From a virus (taxonomy: Duplodnaviria > Caudoviricetes), in IMG/VR virus record IMGVR_UViG_3300022217_000003, positions 96,001-160,000 of that record: a stretch of 64,000 bases of DNA, one strand, 5' to 3'. The notes under the pieces are model-generated. The model did no database searches and was not told the DNA's origin. It worked only from the letters and a program-made list of their open reading frames with translations. This document shows, piece by piece, positions 1,469 through 45,606 of this stretch. The position numbers were made by a program, and so were the translations under genes. Position 1 is the stretch's first letter; each line of letters begins with the position of its first letter.

Positions 1469-2613
1469 TAAATAACTCTCCTTATTACATCGCAAACAAA
1501 TTGTATATCATCTTTAGTTAGATTGGGATGGTTAGGAACATAGAATCCGCAATTATCTATATGTTGTGCCATGTTATCGTAAACAATACAATTTGCTTTT
1601 TTAATAAATGGTTGGTTTCCCATATTCCCACATACGAGCGGTCTATTTTCTATATTATTTTTATTTAATGCTTTTATTATTTTATCTCTTTTGGTATGAA
1701 CAATGGGATATGCGAAACTTGATATTGTGTCGCCTTTATGTCCCCTTAATGGACTACACATATTCAGATATTCTTGATATAAATTAAAGTTATCTTGACG
1801 CTTTTGAACTATATCATCCAATTTATCCAATTGCCTAAGCCCTAAAAATGCGCCTATCTCAGTATTTCTAATATTAAATCCAGGATAATAGAACTTATAA
1901 AGAGACTCAAATTCACTAACCTTATACTTTTTTCTCAATTTCTTTTGATCTTTAGATGGCAGATCCCTACTCCATCCATGATTTCGTATCATTCTTAATA
2001 TGTTGTACAACTCTTTATCATCTGTACACACAGCTCCGCCTTCTACGCAACTCATTTGATGACTCATATACATAGAATGACTACTCATTAATCCAAAATT
2101 ACCTAATTTTTTTAATTTATACTGACTACCGATTGACTCACAATTGTCTTCAAGAAGTATTACATCATATTCCTTGCATAGATGTATTATTTCATCATAT
2201 TGAGGAGAAAATCCTAATATATTTACTGCCAATAGCACTGCGGGTTTATATTTTTTGAATATTTTACTTAAACAATCTAGATCAACACTGAAATTATTCA
2301 ATTCAACATCGCAAATAATTGTTTGAAATCCTAATTGTATCCCAGGAGAGGCAGAGGTTGCCCAACTTATTGCTGGTATTACTATTTTATTATTTTTCAA
2401 CCTACCTGATAATTTTAAAGCATATATCATTGCCAAATTAGCTGAACTTCCTGAATTAACAAATACACAGTGCTTACATCCTATATAATCAGAAAACTTT
2501 TGTTCAAATTCTTTTACTAATTCGCCCTGAGATAGCCTTGGATTGGTCAATATCCATTCCGCCAAAGTCCTTCGGTCTCTTTTATCAAAATTATCCGATG
2601 CTAATTTAATCAC
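1468..2613 (-). CDS. colD: DegT/DnrJ/EryC1/StrS-fold PLP enzyme, ColD-like GDP-4-keto-6-deoxymannose 3-dehydratase
   Basis: [26 protein letters not shown] with His at the position of the Schiff-base Lys, NHGWSR; adjacent to gmd and fcl. Confidence 0.75.
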
Positions 2614-3538
2614 TAATTAATTCCTTATAATACTCAACTGTTTTTTCTATACCTTCTTCTAAATTAGTCGTTGCCTTCCAACCCAATTTATTTATTTTAG
2701 AAACATCAAGACATTTTAATTTCATCCCATCTGGCTTTGAGGTATCATATTTAAACTTACCTTTCCATTCTATAACCCTTGCCACCGTTTCCGCAAGCTC
2801 AGTAATGCTTGCATCCTTACCTGTCCCAACATTTAAAAATGTTTTTGATTTGATATTATTCATTGCCCATACCATACAATCGGCAAGGTCTTCAACGTAT
2901 AAAAATTCTCTCCTGGGCTCTCCTGTCCCCCAGATAGTTATTACTTTTTTATTACTTTTTTTTGCATCATATATCTTTTTTATAAGGGACTGCAATACAT
3001 GGGAGTCCGTAGGGTCAAAGTGGTCATATATGCCATATAGATTAGTGGGGGATAAAATTATAAACTTATCCCCTAATGTTTTATTCGCATATTCACATAG
3101 TTTCGTACCGCATATCTTTGAAAGGGCATATCCTTCATTGGTGGGCTCCACAGGTGCTTCTAATAAATATGATTCCTTTAGCGGTTGTTTGTAATCTCTG
3201 GGGAACATACACGCAGAGGCAAGGTACATAGTTTTTTCAACATTATATTTTATAGCACAATTGATAATATTGTTTTGTATCATAAGATTTTCATATAAAA
3301 ACTTATATGGTTCATTTATATTCGCCTGTATACCCCCTACAATTGAGGCACAATGATATATATACATGGGTCTATGGCAACGGATAAAAGATTCTGTATC
3401 TTCCTGGCTTGTAAGATCTAATTGATTATGTTCTCTTGTTATAATATTATCATATCCGGATTCCTTTAGTTTCTTCACAAGATTCCTTCCAACTAACCCC
3501 GTTGCACCCGATACATATATCAGATCTTCTTTTTTCAT
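2606..3538 (-). CDS. fcl: GDP-L-fucose synthase / ColC-like epimerase-reductase
   Basis: GATGLVG, VGGIQAN, EPTNEGYALSK, PTNLYG, SHVL, WGTGEPRREFLYVEDLA, KPDG. Confidence 0.92.
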   Translation of the reverse strand: MKKEDLIYVSGATGLVGRNLVKKLKESGYDNIITREHNQLDLTSQEDTESFIRCHRPMYIYHCASIVGGIQANINEPYKFLYENLMIQNNIINCAIKYNVEKTMYLASACMFPRDYKQPLKESYLLEAPVEPTNEGYALSKICGTKLCEYANKTLGDKFIILSPTNLYGIYDHFDPTDSHVLQSLIKKIYDAKKSNKKVITIWGTGEPRREFLYVEDLADCMVWAMNNIKSKTFLNVGTGKDASITELAETVARVIEWKGKFKYDTSKPDGMKLKCLDVSKINKLGWKATTNLEEGIEKTVEYYKELISD

Positions 3539-4569
3539 AACCTATCCAACATAATACATTTATTATTAGAAACATATTTTTTTTCTGTTTCTATTGAAGC
3601 GCATTCATTTATAATATTCATAAATTCTTCTTTTGTAATAGGTTCTTCTTCCCACATACAGGCCTTCTTTGAGAATATTCCACGTTCGACCCTATCATTC
3701 CATGTTCCCTGATATACAGGATGCATTTTATCAGTTAGTATTACTGGGAAATTGGATCTGGTATGACTTGAAATAGCACCACCCATTCCGTCAGCTATTA
3801 AGCCCTTTGATAAATAAAGTAAGCATAATAATTCACTATATGTCATGTCCTCGCTATTAATTTCATGATAATTTCCGTGTTCTATACCTGTAGGAAAACA
3901 GGGGAATCCAATATTAACCACGCCATAACCATTATTTAGCATTTCTTCAAAATGGGACTTAATTTCCATTCGTGTGTTATGCATAGGGGCCTTAAAACTA
4001 AAATTTCTTGTTATAGCGAGAAAAGTTTTGTCTGTAAATAAATGTTTATATTGGCTATCTATTTTTTCTTTGTCTTCTTGGAAAGGATATATAAAATTAC
4101 CTTCCTTTATACACCTTCCTATATTTCCAAATTCAATATAAAACTGCCCCCACATGTCCTTATTATATTCTGATTCGGTATTTTGACTAAAAATTTTACA
4201 ATCAGGGGGCAATGCATCTAATATTTCTTGACATGGATAAGGCCCATCATGGAAATAATGGAAATCGCATTCCAGATAATGTTTATTAATATATTCAATA
4301 GCCATTTTCATAAAACCAGATGTTACATACCCAGGGACATCCCTTTCGTTTTGCTCTAGAATATATGGATAATTTGCCTTCGCCCTTGCTAAAAATTCTG
4401 TCGAAACACAAAGCATTTCATCTGCATATGTTATTAATGACGCAGCCACATAAGGGACAACTGCAACAACTTTATCATATTCTTTTTTTAATTTATAGAG
4501 ATATGTGCAATCGAATCGGTTGAATGCGTGAAATTCCCCGAAGGGACCAAAGGCTACGGCGATTTTCAT
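3535..4569 (-). CDS. Hypothetical protein in glycan cluster (possibly a divergent glycosyltransferase)
   Basis: 344-aa ORF overlapping its neighbour in the operon; no clear motif. Confidence 0.6.
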   Translation of the reverse strand: MKIAVAFGPFGEFHAFNRFDCTYLYKLKKEYDKVVAVVPYVAASLITYADEMLCVSTEFLARAKANYPYILEQNERDVPGYVTSGFMKMAIEYINKHYLECDFHYFHDGPYPCQEILDALPPDCKIFSQNTESEYNKDMWGQFYIEFGNIGRCIKEGNFIYPFQEDKEKIDSQYKHLFTDKTFLAITRNFSFKAPMHNTRMEIKSHFEEMLNNGYGVVNIGFPCFPTGIEHGNYHEINSEDMTYSELLCLLYLSKGLIADGMGGAISSHTRSNFPVILTDKMHPVYQGTWNDRVERGIFSKKACMWEEEPITKEEFMNIINECASIETEKKYVSNNKCIMLDRL

Positions 4570-4573
4570 TTAA

Positions 4574-5395
4574 TTACTTCCTCAACTTTTTTTTTATTGG
4601 AATTTCGCTATCCAAACACCTTATCACCCCATCGCCCCATGACTTTTTGTAACTATTTAATATGTCTTTTATTTTTAAAACCCCTGGTATTTCTATTGAA
4701 GCGGATTGATCAGACCCATACATTGCACGATCCAATGTAATATGATACTCCGCCATCTCACAGCCAAGAGCGTACGCCATTGTAATAAAATGTATCCCAG
4801 GAGAATGATTGGAAAATCCTATCTTATATTTATGACCATAAAAATCCTGTAATGTTTTTATTCTATTCATGTTCATGTCTTCGTCTGACGTGGGATATGT
4901 TGAAGTTGTAGATAAAATATATTCCACACTATCCCCAAGTATTCCCAATGCGTTATTTAATTCTTCGGGTGATGTCATCCCCGTAGAAAGAATAATTGGC
5001 TTACCCGTTTCCTTTATCTTTTCCAACAATTCAATATCAGTATTAGATGCTGATGCAACCTTTATAAATGGTATATCATATTGCATTAAAAAATCGACAG
5101 ATGCGCAATCCCATGGGCTCGCATACCACTTAATCCCTTTTTCTTTACAGTAACGATCTATCTCATCATAATCTTCCTTAGAATATTCCAATTGATTCTT
5201 TAAGTCCCTATTTGTTTTGCCATAAGGTGATTCCCTTAGTTTATCTAATTCTGCTTCAGTATAAACATTTTCTATAGTTCGCTTTTGAAACTTCACTGCA
5301 AAGCACCCCCCCAATACAGCTACGTCAATTAACTTTTTAGTTAAGTCTATATTCCCTAATCCATTTATTCCTATTTCAGCTACTAATTTCATCAA
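4574..5395 (-). CDS. neuB: N-acetylneuraminate synthase (NeuB) family protein, short form
   Basis: AEIGING, AVKFQKR, IKVASA, ILSTGM, STYP, GFSNH, EYHITLDR, GSDQSAS; no C-terminal antifreeze-like domain. Confidence 0.9.
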   Translation of the reverse strand: MMKLVAEIGINGLGNIDLTKKLIDVAVLGGCFAVKFQKRTIENVYTEAELDKLRESPYGKTNRDLKNQLEYSKEDYDEIDRYCKEKGIKWYASPWDCASVDFLMQYDIPFIKVASASNTDIELLEKIKETGKPIILSTGMTSPEELNNALGILGDSVEYILSTTSTYPTSDEDMNMNRIKTLQDFYGHKYKIGFSNHSPGIHFITMAYALGCEMAEYHITLDRAMYGSDQSASIEIPGVLKIKDILNSYKKSWGDGVIRCLDSEIPIKKKLRK

Positions 5396-40302: not shown

Positions 40303-40338
40303 ATATCAGGGGAGCAGATAAACTGCCCCCACTGATAT
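40303..40338 (-). terminator. GC-rich hairpin after the capsid stop (terminator or processing/stabilising stem)
   Basis: ATATCAG-TGGGGGCAG-TTTAT-CTGCTCCC-CTGATAT; no clear U-tract. Confidence 0.6.
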
Positions 40339-40362: not shown

Positions 40363-42788
40363 TTATGAAGTCGGCAAATAAACTGGTTCGCCCTGTGTGT
40401 CTGCCAGGAACCACGGGGTATAGGTTGACTTACCTGTAATGGTAATTTTTGCAACCGCTCTTGCGTTGACTATGCCTACGCCGATTTCTTCGTATACGAC
40501 CCAACCTAACCGCAACTTTGCGGGTTTGTCAGCAGGTATTACGTTTACATCTTGACGAATTGGCATAACGCCTACAAATTCGGGTTCTGCGAGACAATAG
40601 ACTGTTCCACGAGGGATCATTTTACTTACAAGTATGTCTGAGGTCCATAAATGACCAACTAACCCTGTTTGTAAAATCTCTCTCTGTGTAACGAAGTCAA
40701 AATCGTTTCTTCCCCAAGTAAGTATGTCTGTGTAATCACCAAAATTCATGATGAACTTACTAGGAACTAAATCCCATTTACCTACTTCGGACATCGCCGA
40801 AATCATAGAAGTTCTAGCCATGGTATTCGCAACGGTAGTCGTAGGGTTAATAGCAGTAGAAGAAGCAGCAATAGCATTAAAGATATTCTGATCTTCTATG
40901 GCCATTAAATCGATTTTCAGTGTTGTTACTCTCAATTATTCATTGAGGGACAGGACATTTCTGCCTGTCTCCGTATATTGCTATACGGCTCGGACTATGT
41001 CTTCACCTTTCGGTGTTTCTCGTATAGTCTCTGAGGGTGGAAACTTATATTGCATACATTCAGGTATGTGCTTTTTTATTATATTCATTAACTTAGGATA
41101 CTCAGCTTTAGTAATCCTAAATTCATAAACTGTCTTAGAAGAATAATATACCTTTACACTAAGGTCAAATTTATTTTTCAAAACACCCTGAATAATTTTA
41201 ACTACACCTTTATTGAGATGTTTCCCAACGTATAGCCTTATACCAACTATTTCTTTTTTATGATTCATGAGATAACACCCATCGTCCATTATCCAGATCG
41301 CCAAACCTAATGGAGTAAGCCTTTCTAACGCTTTCTTCTTAAGTATTTTATTCCCAGTTCCATGGTAATTTTTATAAAACAACCATCGGTAATAATTAAA
41401 GTCTGGATGAAACTTTGTGGCATAACGATAACTTTCAAACCCATTTTTATCAATTTGTTTCCTAATGGGGTTTGAAAACATACCAAAAATATCACTCTTC
41501 CATTTTAAGTAGCCTAATTGTTTTGCACAATGTGTCATAAACAAGCTACTGCAATATTTGTTAGACCTGATACTTGAATCGCCAAGCATCATTCCTATAA
41601 CTGCATCTTTTTGAATACTGTCCAAATGATATTTTTTTATTTCCCTTAACTGAGTGTGAAGTATGGGTATACTCCACTTTTTCATTTTTTTGGAAATGGT
41701 ATTGTTATTACAATTATACACTTTTGCAATCTCACGTATAGTTAGCATCTCCGAATGATACAACTTTTCTAATTTTTCTTTTGTTATGTCTTTAATATTC
41801 AACATAGCAAGTTTCCTTTCCTGCAAATTGTCCGCAGTGCTTTCTCTTAAAAAACACATCTTACCGGAGTTCCTTGCATATAGAGAAATTGAGAACCAAT
41901 TTCTTAGCTCTTTGCTGAGCTCTATCAATCAAATTAAACCTACGAGCTTTCACCTGCGAAAACCTAACTTGAGGATAAGACCCGATTTCAAAAAGGGGAA
42001 CGGTAATCCTCTCACCTTCCTGGATCGTGTCCGGAATTCTTCCTCTCTTGCTCACAGTAACGGCTGGAGATTTTATATCTTTATCATAAACCGGTAAAGC
42101 ACCCTGTGGTAATGGGTCCGGTACAATAAGTTTTCTTCCAACCGACTGATAATCTACAATTTTGTTACTCACCCTATCTTGAAGTCACAATTTGTTACTT
42201 CAAGTCCAAGGTGGGACAGATCATTTCTGCCTGCCTCTACATATTTCTATGCAGTTCGGACTGTATCATCTTTAAACTATTTTCAAAGAACAAAGCCCCC
42301 TTTGCAGTCTCTGGGGAGAATTCGTGTTCGCTATTTGCGAATTGAGAACACTCCTGCTGATTGTCCGTCCTCATAAAACGGGTGTTCCAGCATACACCGG
42401 GGGTTTTAATGGCGCAAGATTATGGTTCACGCCATCCTAATCTTTATTGTTACTCCTATTATTGGATATTAATAGGGGAACGGTCATTTCTGCCGTTCTC
42501 TACACATCACTGTGTAGAACAGACTATATCTTCACCCTTTCGACATAAGGGGTTCTGCGTGTTAGTCGTTGAGGGGTCAATTAATAATGACTTCCCTGCT
42601 GATAATCTAAAATTCAATTTAGACTTCCCAGCATACAGCAGAATCTTTTTAACTATCAGTTACCCAATAGCTTCCCAATAGATATTAGGATTAGCCATTG
42701 AAGCGGCAAGAGCGAGTCTTCCGTCCTCTGAAGAAAGAGCAGCCTCTATAAGAGAATTTCTTTCTGCGGGAGTTATAACATCACTCAT
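40363..42788 (-). CDS. Major capsid protein, 306 aa, spliced from four exons: 42788-42687, 42441-42429, 42156-41906, 40917-40363
   Basis: Exons of 102+13+251+555 = 921 nt join in frame: MSDVITPAERNSLIEAALSSEDGRLALAASMANP|IRMA|LDYQSVGRKLIVPDPLPQGALPVYDKDI...RRFNLIDRAQQRA|KIDLMAIEDQNIF...REILQTGLVGHLW...LGWVVYEEIGVGIVN; GAAAGGAG RBS; follows protease/scaffold/decoration genes. Confidence 0.9.
40918..41905 (-). ncRNA. Group I intron 3 of the capsid gene (988 nt, encodes an endonuclease)
   Basis: 5' exon ends in U (GCU); P1 AGAGCU/GGUUCU with U.G; P7 CAGAGACTA...GAAGACATAGTCC; ends GAGTAACAACACTG with terminal G. Confidence 0.9.
40981..41805 (-). CDS. Intron-encoded LAGLIDADG homing endonuclease with N-terminal HTH
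   Basis: VIGMMLGDSSI and LTPLGLAIWIMDDG; ATG 41805 after AAGGA; 3' end overlaps the ribozyme core. Confidence 0.88.
   Translation of the reverse strand: MLNIKDITKEKLEKLYHSEMLTIREIAKVYNCNNNTISKKMKKWSIPILHTQLREIKKYHLDSIQKDAVIGMMLGDSSIRSNKYCSSLFMTHCAKQLGYLKWKSDIFGMFSNPIRKQIDKNGFESYRYATKFHPDFNYYRWLFYKNYHGTGNKILKKKALERLTPLGLAIWIMDDGCYLMNHKKEIVGIRLYVGKHLNKGVVKIIQGVLKNKFDLSVKVYYSSKTVYEFRITKAEYPKLMNIIKKHIPECMQYKFPPSETIRETPKGEDIVRAV
42157..42428 (-). ncRNA. Group I intron 2 of the capsid gene (272 nt, no ORF)
   Basis: P1 AUGGCGU/GCGCCAU with U.G at the splice site; P10 AUAAUCU/AGAUUAU; ATGCTGG and AATCAGCAGG; P7 GAGACTG...ACAGTCC; ends GAGTAACAAAATTG. Confidence 0.92.
42442..42686 (-). ncRNA. Group I intron 1 of the capsid gene (245 nt, no ORF)
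   Basis: P1 UCCU|AAUA-UC-UAUU-GGGA with U.G; ATGCTGGGAA and ATCAGCAGG; P7 CGACTA...GAAGATATAGTC; ends GAGTAACAATAAAG. Confidence 0.92.
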
Positions 42789-42882
42789 CTTGTCAACTCC
42801 TTTCAATTAAATAAAAAATTATTAGTATATATATAATACCATGAAGATTATCATTACGATATATCTTCTGCGTTACGCAATT

Positions 42883-43398
42883 TTACGTTACGCCTTCTAT
42901 CTGACCAACGGTCATGATAGTCATTTTGTCATCGTTCGCTGCCGATGAAGGCGGAACGATTACCATTCCAACTATAGGCTGTGAGCCATAATTAGTTGCG
43001 GGAGTTAATTTCCCTTGATTAGTCCCAGACCCTATAACTGTTAACAATGTATTAACCGCATAAGTCATTCCTGTGTCATAGTTTTCCTTAACTTCAAATA
43101 CACCATTAAGACATAACAGATATATAGAGAGATATCCTGATTTCAATCCATCTACAAAACTATCGGCCAATATACCAATCGGTCTTGTAGCATCTGTTTT
43201 ATCAAGGGCAGTAGTGCCCCCATCACTTAAAAACTGTAAAATCATTCCGGCTGGTAAAGTGGTATCAGAAGCTCCATAAGGTTCATTGAGGTCGGTAGAC
43301 CCCGTGTTCCTAAGATTGGTCGTTCCTAACGCCACCAATGTGGAGCTCATAGGAAAAGATATAGGTCCTGGATATGGTTCATGTACAACTTCAAGCAT
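42883..43398 (-). CDS. Putative head decoration/cement protein
   Basis: Beta-rich 171 aa between the scaffold and capsid genes; PAGMI, PIGIL, GKLT; AGGAGG RBS. Confidence 0.6.
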   Translation of the reverse strand: MLEVVHEPYPGPISFPMSSTLVALGTTNLRNTGSTDLNEPYGASDTTLPAGMILQFLSDGGTTALDKTDATRPIGILADSFVDGLKSGYLSIYLLCLNGVFEVKENYDTGMTYAVNTLLTVIGSGTNQGKLTPATNYGSQPIVGMVIVPPSSAANDDKMTIMTVGQIEGVT

Positions 43399-45543
43399 TT
43401 ATTTGTCACCTCCTTTACTAGGTATTTTTGTAGTCCAGATATTTTCCAGACTTTCTTTTAGTCCCTTGTCTACTGTACCGGACATTTGTGGTACCGAAGA
43501 CAATCCACCTGTACGAACAAATTTTTGGCTTTTTGAGTCTCCCGCCTCCGCTTTATTCGTATTGGTTACTATATTTTCAGTAATACTCTCAAGTGCTACA
43601 AATGACACATCGTCCATTAACATCATTTTTTCCAGCTCAGAATCTTTATTAGCTTCATCAATTACATTATTTTCTACCATGTAATCAGCAAGCTTAATAG
43701 CGGCGTTAGCCCTAACTCTTAACTGGCTTTCATTTATTAACTTACTATTATCACCCTTTGCATTCTTGAGTTCTTCACTAGTCTTGGATAATTTTTCAAG
43801 TAAAATCCTATTGCTTTTCTCTACTTCCTGCCTATAGGCATTTACCTTATCAAATTCCGCCTTATCAACTACGTTCCTACCAGAGCCATATCTCTTAGTA
43901 AGCTTAGGCTTAATAGATTTATCTACCTCGCTTTGACTAATATACTTTTCTGGAGTAGTTAGTTTCTTTTGTAATGCAGGAGATTTACCTTTTCCAGGAG
44001 CGGCATTTTCAGCAATGATATTAATATCAGCTTTTTTAGTATCGAGGTTTAGGCTGGCTTTAACTCCAAGATTATGAGCCGTAACTTCAAACCCATCTCT
44101 ATTAACCCTTGATACAATAAGCTTCCCATATTCAGGACTAGATACTTCTGCCCATTTCTCAAAACCTTTTTTGCCCCAAATGTCTCTTACGGATGCTTCT
44201 ATAATTTTCTCTTTCTTATTATAGATAGTCCAATAAGAATCCATCTTAGATGCAGTCGGAGTAAATACGGCAGTAATACCATCTTCTGATAATCTGTCTC
44301 CAAGAGTAGCTTTTTTATCTTTCTTCTTATCTTCTTTTTCCTTTTTCTTTTTAGCCTCTTCCTTCTCTTTTTCTTTTTCCTTTTGAGCCTTTTCTTTCTC
44401 TTTCTCTTTTTTCTTATCGTCCTTGTCATCTTTCTTACTGGCCATCAAAGGTCCTTTTTTCTCATCAATAAGGTCTCTTCCCTTATCTAACAACATATCA
44501 CCATCAAGAGGGTCTTTAGCTTTATCCCCCATTTCGGGCATCATTTCCTTCTTTTTCATATCAGGCTTCCCAAATGGGACTTTAGGCTCTATGCCTTCTT
44601 CTCCTTTTTCAGTGTCTATATCAACACCAATATTTTCAGCAGCATCTTCCAGTTTTTCAACTATATCTCCTATGCCTTCTGTAGCTTCTTCTATTTCAGT
44701 AACTGCTTTTTCCAGCTCTTTCTTCTGTGGTCCTTTGTCATCCTTTTCATCTTTCTTCTCATCTTTGGGAAGGGATTTCATGTCATTTCCACCCATTGCC
44801 TTATCATCATCTTTCTTCTCTTTTTTATCGTTCTTGACTTCGTCGTCTTCCATAGCCTGTCTGGTTATACCAAGATTAGAACCGGATGCTTTAGTAACCG
44901 CTACTGATGGAGGGGTTGGACTAATGTATTTATCCTTTGACCTCTTCACATCTTCCGCCTTTCCACCCTGTTCTTTTTCAGGGGGATAATGGACCTTTTT
45001 CATCCGGAGATCTTCCTCGACAGAACTTATCTTTGTGAGCTCATTCCTGACCTTAACCCTTGCAACACGAATTTCCTTTATAACACTGTCATCTTTGGCC
45101 TTGTTAAAAGCCTCATTCAGCCTTGCTAACTGTCCTTTTAAATTGGACTTAAGCTTTTTAAGAGTATCCTTCCCTTTTCCAGAAGGAGTATCTTTAACAT
45201 ACTTATCCTTAGACCGTTCATCATCAGCTTTTCTTCCTGGATCTGGATCTGGGGAATACCTTGATTTCTCTTTAGCTTCCCTTATACCATTAAGCTGCTG
45301 TTTGGCCTTTTGAACCAACTGCTCTGTCCTGGATGCCGTTGCGGTAATATCGGTAGGTTGAATATCTGGTGCCATAGAATTAGCACTGTTGATCACTTGC
45401 GCCTGTATAGCCACCATTTCTGATGGATTTACATCCTTTGAAGCTTTTATATTACGCACAGCCTTGTCCATTTCAATCTGATCCTCATCTCTGCCTATAG
45501 GCTCTGACCCACCTGAGTCAGCTCTTGTAATTTTCTTTCCCAT
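43399..45543 (-). CDS. Putative capsid scaffolding/prohead core protein
   Basis: Highly charged, coiled-coil ~714 aa between the protease and capsid genes; GAGGAGGTG RBS before ATG 45543; many x-x-A-S sites. Confidence 0.6.
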   Translation of the reverse strand: MGKKITRADSGGSEPIGRDEDQIEMDKAVRNIKASKDVNPSEMVAIQAQVINSANSMAPDIQPTDITATASRTEQLVQKAKQQLNGIREAKEKSRYSPDPDPGRKADDERSKDKYVKDTPSGKGKDTLKKLKSNLKGQLARLNEAFNKAKDDSVIKEIRVARVKVRNELTKISSVEEDLRMKKVHYPPEKEQGGKAEDVKRSKDKYISPTPPSVAVTKASGSNLGITRQAMEDDEVKNDKKEKKDDDKAMGGNDMKSLPKDEKKDEKDDKGPQKKELEKAVTEIEEATEGIGDIVEKLEDAAENIGVDIDTEKGEEGIEPKVPFGKPDMKKKEMMPEMGDKAKDPLDGDMLLDKGRDLIDEKKGPLMASKKDDKDDKKKEKEKEKAQKEKEKEKEEAKKKKEKEDKKKDKKATLGDRLSEDGITAVFTPTASKMDSYWTIYNKKEKIIEASVRDIWGKKGFEKWAEVSSPEYGKLIVSRVNRDGFEVTAHNLGVKASLNLDTKKADINIIAENAAPGKGKSPALQKKLTTPEKYISQSEVDKSIKPKLTKRYGSGRNVVDKAEFDKVNAYRQEVEKSNRILLEKLSKTSEELKNAKGDNSKLINESQLRVRANAAIKLADYMVENNVIDEANKDSELEKMMLMDDVSFVALESITENIVTNTNKAEAGDSKSQKFVRTGGLSSVPQMSGTVDKGLKESLENIWTTKIPSKGGDK

Positions 45544-45606
45544 ATTATATTTCACCTCCTCTCTTTAATAAAATATAGTCGTGGTTAAATAAACATCTAT
45601 TCATAT

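Follow-up and report, generated by a model that had tools for sequence, protein, structure and literature searches.

The DNA analyzed here (the window) is a 64,000-nt stretch, positions 96,001 to 160,000, of the IMG/VR virus record IMGVR_UViG_3300022217_000003. The record comes from sediment, measures 175,779 bp and is estimated to be 77% complete, a length and completeness that fit a large phage-G-like virus. On the minus strand of the window, from 42788 down to 40363, lies a gene for a major capsid protein whose coding sequence is divided into four exons by three predicted group I introns. Introns 1 and 2 are separated by a micro-exon of 13 nt, and intron 3 carries an open reading frame (ORF) for a putative homing endonuclease. 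All window coordinates below refer to the minus strand.

Exon 1 (42687..42788; 102 nt) encodes residues 1–34, ends in ...AATCCT (Pro34) and aligns with the N-termini of uninterrupted homologs. A ribosome-binding site, GAAAGGAG, can be read from the sequence at 42797..42804, 8 nt upstream of the start codon. Intron 1 (42442..42686; 245 nt) has no ORF and is followed by the micro-exon, exon 2 (42429..42441), which specifies Ile35-Arg36-Met37-Ala38 and the first base of Leu39. Intron 2 (42157..42428; 272 nt), also without an ORF, precedes exon 3 (41906..42156; 251 nt; residues 39–122). Intron 3 (40918..41905; 988 nt) contains the endonuclease ORF, and exon 4 (40363..40917; 555 nt including the stop codon) completes the protein with residues 123–306. 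Rejoining the four exons by script gives 921 nt, or 306 codons plus a stop. The exon lengths and 306-amino acid (aa) frame proposed in the first-pass annotation, an automated reading of the sequence, were thereby found to be exact in their coordinates. In the rebuilt mRNA the junctions read AATCCT/ATTAGG, GGCGT/TAGATT and AGAGCT/AAAATC, and they fall between P34 and I35, inside the Leu39 codon, and between A122 and K123. Gene callers see this gene only as fragments of 180 and 103 aa, as the first-pass annotation had expected of automated methods.

The joined protein was aligned with intron-less capsid homologs, a check that the first-pass annotation had proposed, and the alignment is gapless at all three junctions across 16 uninterrupted homologs. 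The sequence N-P-I-R, which straddles junction 1, does not vary across the family alignment. Exon 3 matches PHROG 2522 (major head protein) at profile positions 73–157 (E 2.8e-18) and exon 4 does so at 160–316 (E 1e-42), and the match is thus contiguous across junction 3. The junction-spanning peptides predicted earlier are supported by this structural reading of the joined frame. With exon 4 as the query, a database search gave 293 relatives, mostly uninterrupted proteins of 280–315 aa with up to 77% identity. Exon 4 also matches the Bacillus phage G capsid protein gp27 (PDB 6WKK; E 6.5e-59), with 56% identity over the exon. By these matches, the gene product is assigned to the HK97-fold major capsid proteins of the phage G gp27 type (PHROG 2522 / PF25209), in line with the identity first given to it. 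The record holds only one capsid gene of this family.

Three predicted group I introns and a micro-exon

The Rfam covariance model for group I introns, RF00028, had been suggested as a further check and matches each of the inserts. The match to intron 1, at 82.8 bits (E 7e-21), exceeds the gathering score of 50. For intron 2 the score is 42.1 bits (E 1e-8), or 41.1 bits in a scan restricted to 42150–42441, and for the 3' core of intron 3 it is 39.4 bits (E 7e-8), where the E-values for introns 2 and 3 refer to the 2.8 kb scanned; the 5' part of intron 3 was read by eye. Within the whole 175.8-kb record, the three capsid introns are the only RF00028 matches. By sequence criteria the inserts are group I introns, as the first-pass annotation had them: each has a P3–P8 core with P7, a P1 helix with a U.G pair and a terminal G (at 42442, 42157 and 40918), and their removal restores the host gene. 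All three 5' exons end in U, which is paired with G in P1. The introns have J3/4-P4, J6/7-P7 and J8/7-P7' sequences in common, and P7 includes a compensatory change from A-U to G-C.

The individual introns differ in the details of their helices. In intron 1, P1 consists of UCCU/GGGA plus three intron pairs, with the internal guide at 42679–42673. Its P7 strands lie within 42568–42561 and 42527–42520, its 3' domain spans 42494–42442, and an in-frame stop, TAA, occurs within 42665–42657, nine codons into the intron. The P1 of intron 2 has seven to eight exon pairs ending in U.G (hairpin −11.4 kcal/mol) with the internal guide at 42415–42409, and its P7 strands lie within 42310–42304 and 42264–42257. 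Intron 2 also has a loop motif at 42231–42222 and ends in the terminal motif GAGTAACAAAATTG (42170–42157). A near-copy of the latter, AAGTAACAAATTG, sits inside P9.2 at 42200–42188 and could be a cryptic 3' splice site or a remnant of a duplication; splicing there would meet an immediate stop. Intron 3 has a P1 of six pairs ending in U.G (hairpin −7.4 kcal/mol; internal guide 41897–41892), P6 strands at 41816–41809 and 41046–41039, P7 strands within 41030–41022 and 40998–40991, and a 3' domain at 40965–40918.

The ORF of intron 3 (40981..41805) lies in the loop of P6 and encodes 274 aa. It matches the LAGLIDADG_2 family PF03161 at profile positions 3–168 of 168 (E 1.8e-27) and PHROG 11023 (E 1.3e-20), and these matches place its product, by sequence, in the double-motif LAGLIDADG homing endonuclease family. 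The ORF is intact and lies in a different frame from exon 3. Over its final ~95 nt it overlaps P6', P7, P3', P8 and P7', and its stop codon falls within the P9 hairpin. The protein is 48% identical over its full length to the endonuclease in the orthologous intron of a relative, L203 (see below), and both motifs are visible in the alignment.

The U at the end of exon 1 forms the U.G pair of intron 1. The Pro34 codon is CCT here and has C, G or A at its third position in all eight of the uninterrupted homologs compared, and this U is therefore either a synonymous adaptation or part of a co-converted flank. No rise in exon identity near the insertion sites was seen relative to the closest intron-less homolog.

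The micro-exon encodes the conserved motif I-R-x-x, of which I and R are invariant in the homologs. When it is omitted and exon 1 is joined to exon 3, a stop follows directly after ...MANP at residue 34, bearing out the frameshift foreseen in the first-pass annotation. The micro-exon is thus required, and introns 1 and 2 must both be spliced accurately. In a cmscan restricted to the intron 2 region, the last 7 nt of the micro-exon pair with 42415–42409 and end in U.G. This agrees with the earlier proposal that the 13 nt serve both as the 3' exon of intron 1 and as the 7-bp P1 strand of intron 2. An alternative P1 for intron 2 from the unrestricted cmscan, which used the last hairpin of intron 1, was rejected on the restricted scan and the homolog alignment.

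The 13 nt can be divided between two helices. Nucleotides 1–6 may pair, in five of six positions, with the six bases just 5' of the intron 1 guide G to form P10, and by reading, nucleotides 7–13 (6–13 including a G.U pair) are the exon strand of the intron 2 P1. The P10 and P1 roles do not overlap, so either intron could presumably splice first. For intron 2, a P10 of 7 bp with exon 3 is predicted. The P10 pairings that RNAduplex proposed for introns 1 and 3 clash with other helices, and a reading with canonical geometry is kept tentatively in their place.

Intron subfamily and split capsid genes in relatives

The three introns have a 3' domain in common that consists of P9, P9.1 with the invariant loop GGCAGAAATG, P9.2, GAGTAACAA, 2–5 nt and the last G. 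The corresponding pattern, GGCAGAAATG N20-50 GAGTAACAA, was defined in this analysis. It occurs in at least 119 IMG/VR stretches (L084-L202), and its three copies in this genome are all in the capsid introns. In an alignment of 98 sequences (95 IMG/VR stretches and the three window copies), compensatory double changes are found in 14 of the 18 predicted pairs of P9, P9.1 and P9.2; one P9 pair, for example, is UA in 28 sequences, CG in 27, AU in 24 and GC in 15. This covariation gives independent evidence that introns 2 and 3 are real structured introns despite their scores below the Rfam threshold. When the subfamily motifs were looked for in full-text literature, the matches were all to unrelated primers.

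The subfamily sits mostly in virion genes. Among 20 sampled members, the downstream exon belongs to a tape measure gene in seven, a major head gene (of three other families) in three and a portal gene in two; the remainder match an unknown PHROG (three), ribonucleotide reductase (one) or nothing (four). The window introns are only 55–67% alike in the 3' domain, and none is the nearest relative of another. Signs of a recent intragenic duplication of the introns were looked for, and this limited likeness of the 3' domains is all that was found. Since the three are not mutual closest relatives, they look like separate acquisitions, with intron 2 a lineage-specific one that created the micro-exon. 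In one of the IMG/VR stretches (L120:180-880), two tandem inserts of the same subfamily lie ~70 nt apart in a tape-measure-like gene, and RF00028 misses both.

Most relatives have an uninterrupted gene. In IMG/VR, 72 of ~80 loci with this capsid family are uninterrupted, a count in which split genes are underrepresented because retrieval needed two intact N-terminal peptide motifs. Inserts were located at about residues 19/20 and 58–63 in L074, at 29/30 in L170, 32/33 in L071, 44/45 and about 117 in L003, 50–57 in L016, and at about 199 in L075 and about 213 in L152. Searching with exon 3 brought up 17 short gene calls from other metagenomes, many of which end exactly after ...QQRA, which is site 3, and two of the 17 read through into an orthologue of intron 3. 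Intron 3 orthologues occur at site 3 in P0126, P0134 and L203. Compared by blastn with 50,697 GenBank phage records, the 2.4-kb capsid region of the window gave no match.

The most informative relative is L203, a 5.3-kb Logan contig (SRR33452760) in which positions 1923–5318 hold at least five group I-type introns within the first ~170 capsid codons. Its exon 1 is also 102 nt long and ends at the same site, with a group I intron exactly at site 1 (RF00028 42.4 bits). At site 2 its coding sequence is uninterrupted (I-R-M-T-L), and its second intron follows residue 63. Past the intron 3 orthologue, L203 has an 11-nt micro-exon (4620–4630) and then an intron of 68.9 bits; the last intron seen before the contig end scores 60.8 bits. 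This 11-nt micro-exon is independent of the 13-nt one and is the second in the same gene family.

Other relatives are split by inserts without an RF00028 match. The capsid gene of a jumbo phage (L204:4683-8061; a 372-kb ENA contig, on 8 contigs) is interrupted at ~32/33, 122/123 and 198/199, and one of its inserts holds a 336-aa ORF with faint zinc-finger matches. The L003 locus (GCA_043955465.1; L003:3307-6549) has two inserts of ~1.1–1.2 kb with DUF7487 ORFs of 332 and 280 aa, and adjoining genes carry intein domains (PF14890). The inserts of L003, L016, L071, L204 and L120 gave no RF00028 match at E ≤ 0.001 and are for this reason not called group I introns.

The first-pass annotation had regarded multiple introns in one structural gene as uncommon. 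This view does not hold for the present lineage, as the subfamily is found mainly in tape-measure, capsid and portal genes, the capsid genes of relatives have two, three or at least five introns or inserts, and intron-rich jumbo phages have been published (PMC12880540).

Upstream of the capsid gene, at 42883–45555, lie a 171-aa gene and a 718-aa gene rich in K, E and D, neither with a Pfam or PHROG match. This gene order is kept in L003 (810 aa and 171 aa) and L203 (172 aa). From position alone, the two probably encode a scaffold protein and a head protein of the decoration or protease type. Directly after the capsid stop, a GC-rich, terminator-like hairpin can be read at 40304..40338, ahead of the next gene's ribosome-binding site. 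The hairpin has a weak, sub-threshold match to caiA RNA (27.8 versus 55.5 bits) and is most likely just a terminator.

Probable invasion by mobile introns and alternative explanations

The locus is very probably an HK97-fold major capsid gene that belongs to a large, phage-G-like phage and has been invaded by three mobile group I introns. One precursor transcript would cover the whole gene. In each ribozyme, the internal guide would pair with the last bases of the exon upstream to form P1, with the U.G wobble at the cut, and a free guanosine bound at P7 would cut the 5' site. The intron's own terminal G would then replace the free guanosine, and the exons would be joined. All three introns would have to self-splice before capsid protein is made. 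The intron 3 endonuclease presumably cuts intron-less capsid alleles of co-infecting relatives, into which the intron would be copied. Self-splicing, freedom in the order of splicing, the P10 pairings, and the activity and target of the endonuclease are what we infer from the features described above.

Several observations weigh against this interpretation. The scores of introns 2 and 3 (42 and 39 bits) fall under the Rfam gathering score of 50, the P1 of intron 1 is not the local minimum-energy fold, and the P10 of intron 3 is weak, with two canonical pairs read. The case for splicing is drawn from DNA sequence. A 94.9-kb DNA contig spans the capsid region at ~18x with zero differences, though it may be the record's own source and is then not independent support. 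In the three DNA runs compared with the region, no joint that skips an intron was seen, and the probable source contig is the only one to cover it.

The introns are best regarded as selfish elements that ride along at conserved positions in an essential gene, and not as a means of regulation, since the presence or absence of each varies among relatives in a manner that points to selfish gain and loss. The first-pass annotation had suggested instead that splicing could time or limit capsid synthesis. On that account, the phage would use three obligatory splicing events for delay or limitation, and it is true that capsid production would depend on all three and that mis-splicing at the micro-exon is a 34-aa dead end. 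The splicing of T4 introns, moreover, is coupled to translation and growth state. However, most of the IMG/VR loci make the protein from an uninterrupted gene, and the sites vary from phage to phage, as homing gain and loss would produce and a conserved control device would not. In addition, the three introns are not mutual nearest relatives, and one retains a homing endonuclease. Regulation is therefore improbable; the sites, the endonuclease and the patchy presence fit tolerated selfish elements. A role in interference competition, in which the intron 3 endonuclease (and the cluster with it) is kept for cutting the capsid gene of co-infecting intron-less relatives, is conceivable though still unlikely. 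Jumbo phage PhiPA3 has an intron endonuclease for which such an effect has been published (PMC11620839). Here, the endonuclease is intact, its L203 orthologue is alike over the full length, the target gene is essential and intron-less alleles are common in relatives, but introns 1 and 2 have no endonuclease.

Two further explanations would remove the gene or the micro-exon from consideration. That some or all introns no longer splice, leaving a decaying pseudogene on a defective or mis-assembled contig, is very unlikely, even though introns 2 and 3 score below the gathering threshold and the record is an incomplete metagenomic assembly. The four exons are intact, in frame and highly conserved, without stops or frameshifts, in the record's only capsid gene of this family. 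P1, P3–P8, P7 and the terminal G are all present, and the ~18x contig covers the region without differences. Tandem group I modules spliced as a unit are known from fungal mitochondria (PMC12308204), and the unrestricted cmscan alignment of intron 2 crossed the micro-exon. One could thus imagine that 42157–42686 is a single tandem twintron removed whole and that the 13 nt are not an exon. This can scarcely be the case, because whole removal shifts the frame to a stop after residue 34, and the 13 nt specify the I-R that never varies among the homologs and lie between a terminal G on the upstream side and a U.G P1 on the downstream side. Moreover, L203 has only the intron 1 orthologue at this place and then continuous I-R-M-T-L coding.

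With invasion by mobile introns as the preferred explanation, a broader and more tentative proposal can be made. The phage-G-like capsid gene may be an undescribed hot spot for the virion-gene intron subfamily, in which neighbors repeatedly come to lie 11–13 nt apart (here and, independently, at another site in L203), with P10 and P1 consuming the whole micro-exon. If so, both ribozymes must fold side by side, would possibly cooperate and would perhaps home as a unit. This would be a tandem splicing mode so far unstudied in phages.

Comparison with known systems

The locus reveals no new mechanism, and earlier publications already describe introns in capsid genes, phage genes with three introns and jumbo phages rich in introns. 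For phages, the literature yielded no micro-exon flanked by group I introns on both sides, and for the phage G lineage it yielded no multi-intron capsid gene. Since callers yield fragments here and in relatives, capsid-based phage classification and metagenome gene counts will miss or mis-size such genes. The 530 nt of introns 1 and 2 with their exon form a natural test bed for two ribozymes that share a 13-nt exon, for their order of action and for the frequency of skipping. Together with L203, L204 and other split relatives, the locus suggests that homing elements land preferentially in the most conserved part of an essential virion gene. The textbook view that phage introns reside in DNA-metabolism genes would then mirror the phages that were studied first.

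The closest precedent for the number of introns is Staphylococcus phage Twort. [quoted passage not shown] The capsid gene resembles orf142 as a single phage gene with three group I introns of the self-splicing type. It differs in that its product is identified, as a major capsid protein, and its phage belongs to another lineage, that two introns lie 13 nt apart, and that the introns show no extra helices between P3' and P8 in the Rfam alignments and by reading. Three introns in a single phage gene are documented for Twort orf142 and for the polymerase and terL genes of Bastillevirinae (PMC11878797). Introns in major capsid genes are known from mycobacteriophage LittleE and lactococcal phage Tuc2009, and that of LittleE carries a LAGLIDADG-like ORF and is proven to splice by reverse transcription PCR (PMC3706429). 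These cases are alike in having a group I-type intron in the major capsid gene. However, LittleE and Tuc2009 have a single intron each, whereas three introns and a micro-exon, known from DNA sequence, are present here.

The association with a homing endonuclease also has parallels. The intron endonucleases of T4 are GIY-YIG or HNH enzymes, whereas that of intron 3 is predicted to be LAGLIDADG. The introns of T4 td, nrdB and nrdD and of PhiPA3 gp210 are likewise mobile phage group I introns with homing endonucleases (PMC11620839). Two more likenesses are an in-frame stop soon after the 5' splice site and an endonuclease that may play a part in competition between phages. Those introns interrupt genes for nucleotide metabolism or RNA polymerase, in contrast to the capsid gene here.

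Jug phages are jumbo gut phages in which each genome has ~18 group I introns that interrupt essential genes, and metatranscriptomes confirm splicing for about half of the introns (PMC12880540). Both these phages and the Bastillevirinae (PMC11878797) resemble the phage described here in that two or three group I introns, often accompanied by homing endonucleases, interrupt essential genes. Their split genes are terL, DNA polymerase and nrdD/ribonucleotide reductase, whereas the RF00028 matches in this record are confined to the capsid gene. Micro-exons between group I introns are known from mitochondria, namely 1 nt in placozoan cox1 (PMC5436844) and an 18-nt segment of Ophiostoma cob (PMC12308204). 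As in the capsid gene, a tiny exon between two independent group I introns keeps a conserved residue or the frame. The mitochondrial cases concern organellar genes in which protein cofactors are likely, whereas the present case is a phage late gene whose 13 nt are read as P10 (6 nt) followed by P1 (7 nt).

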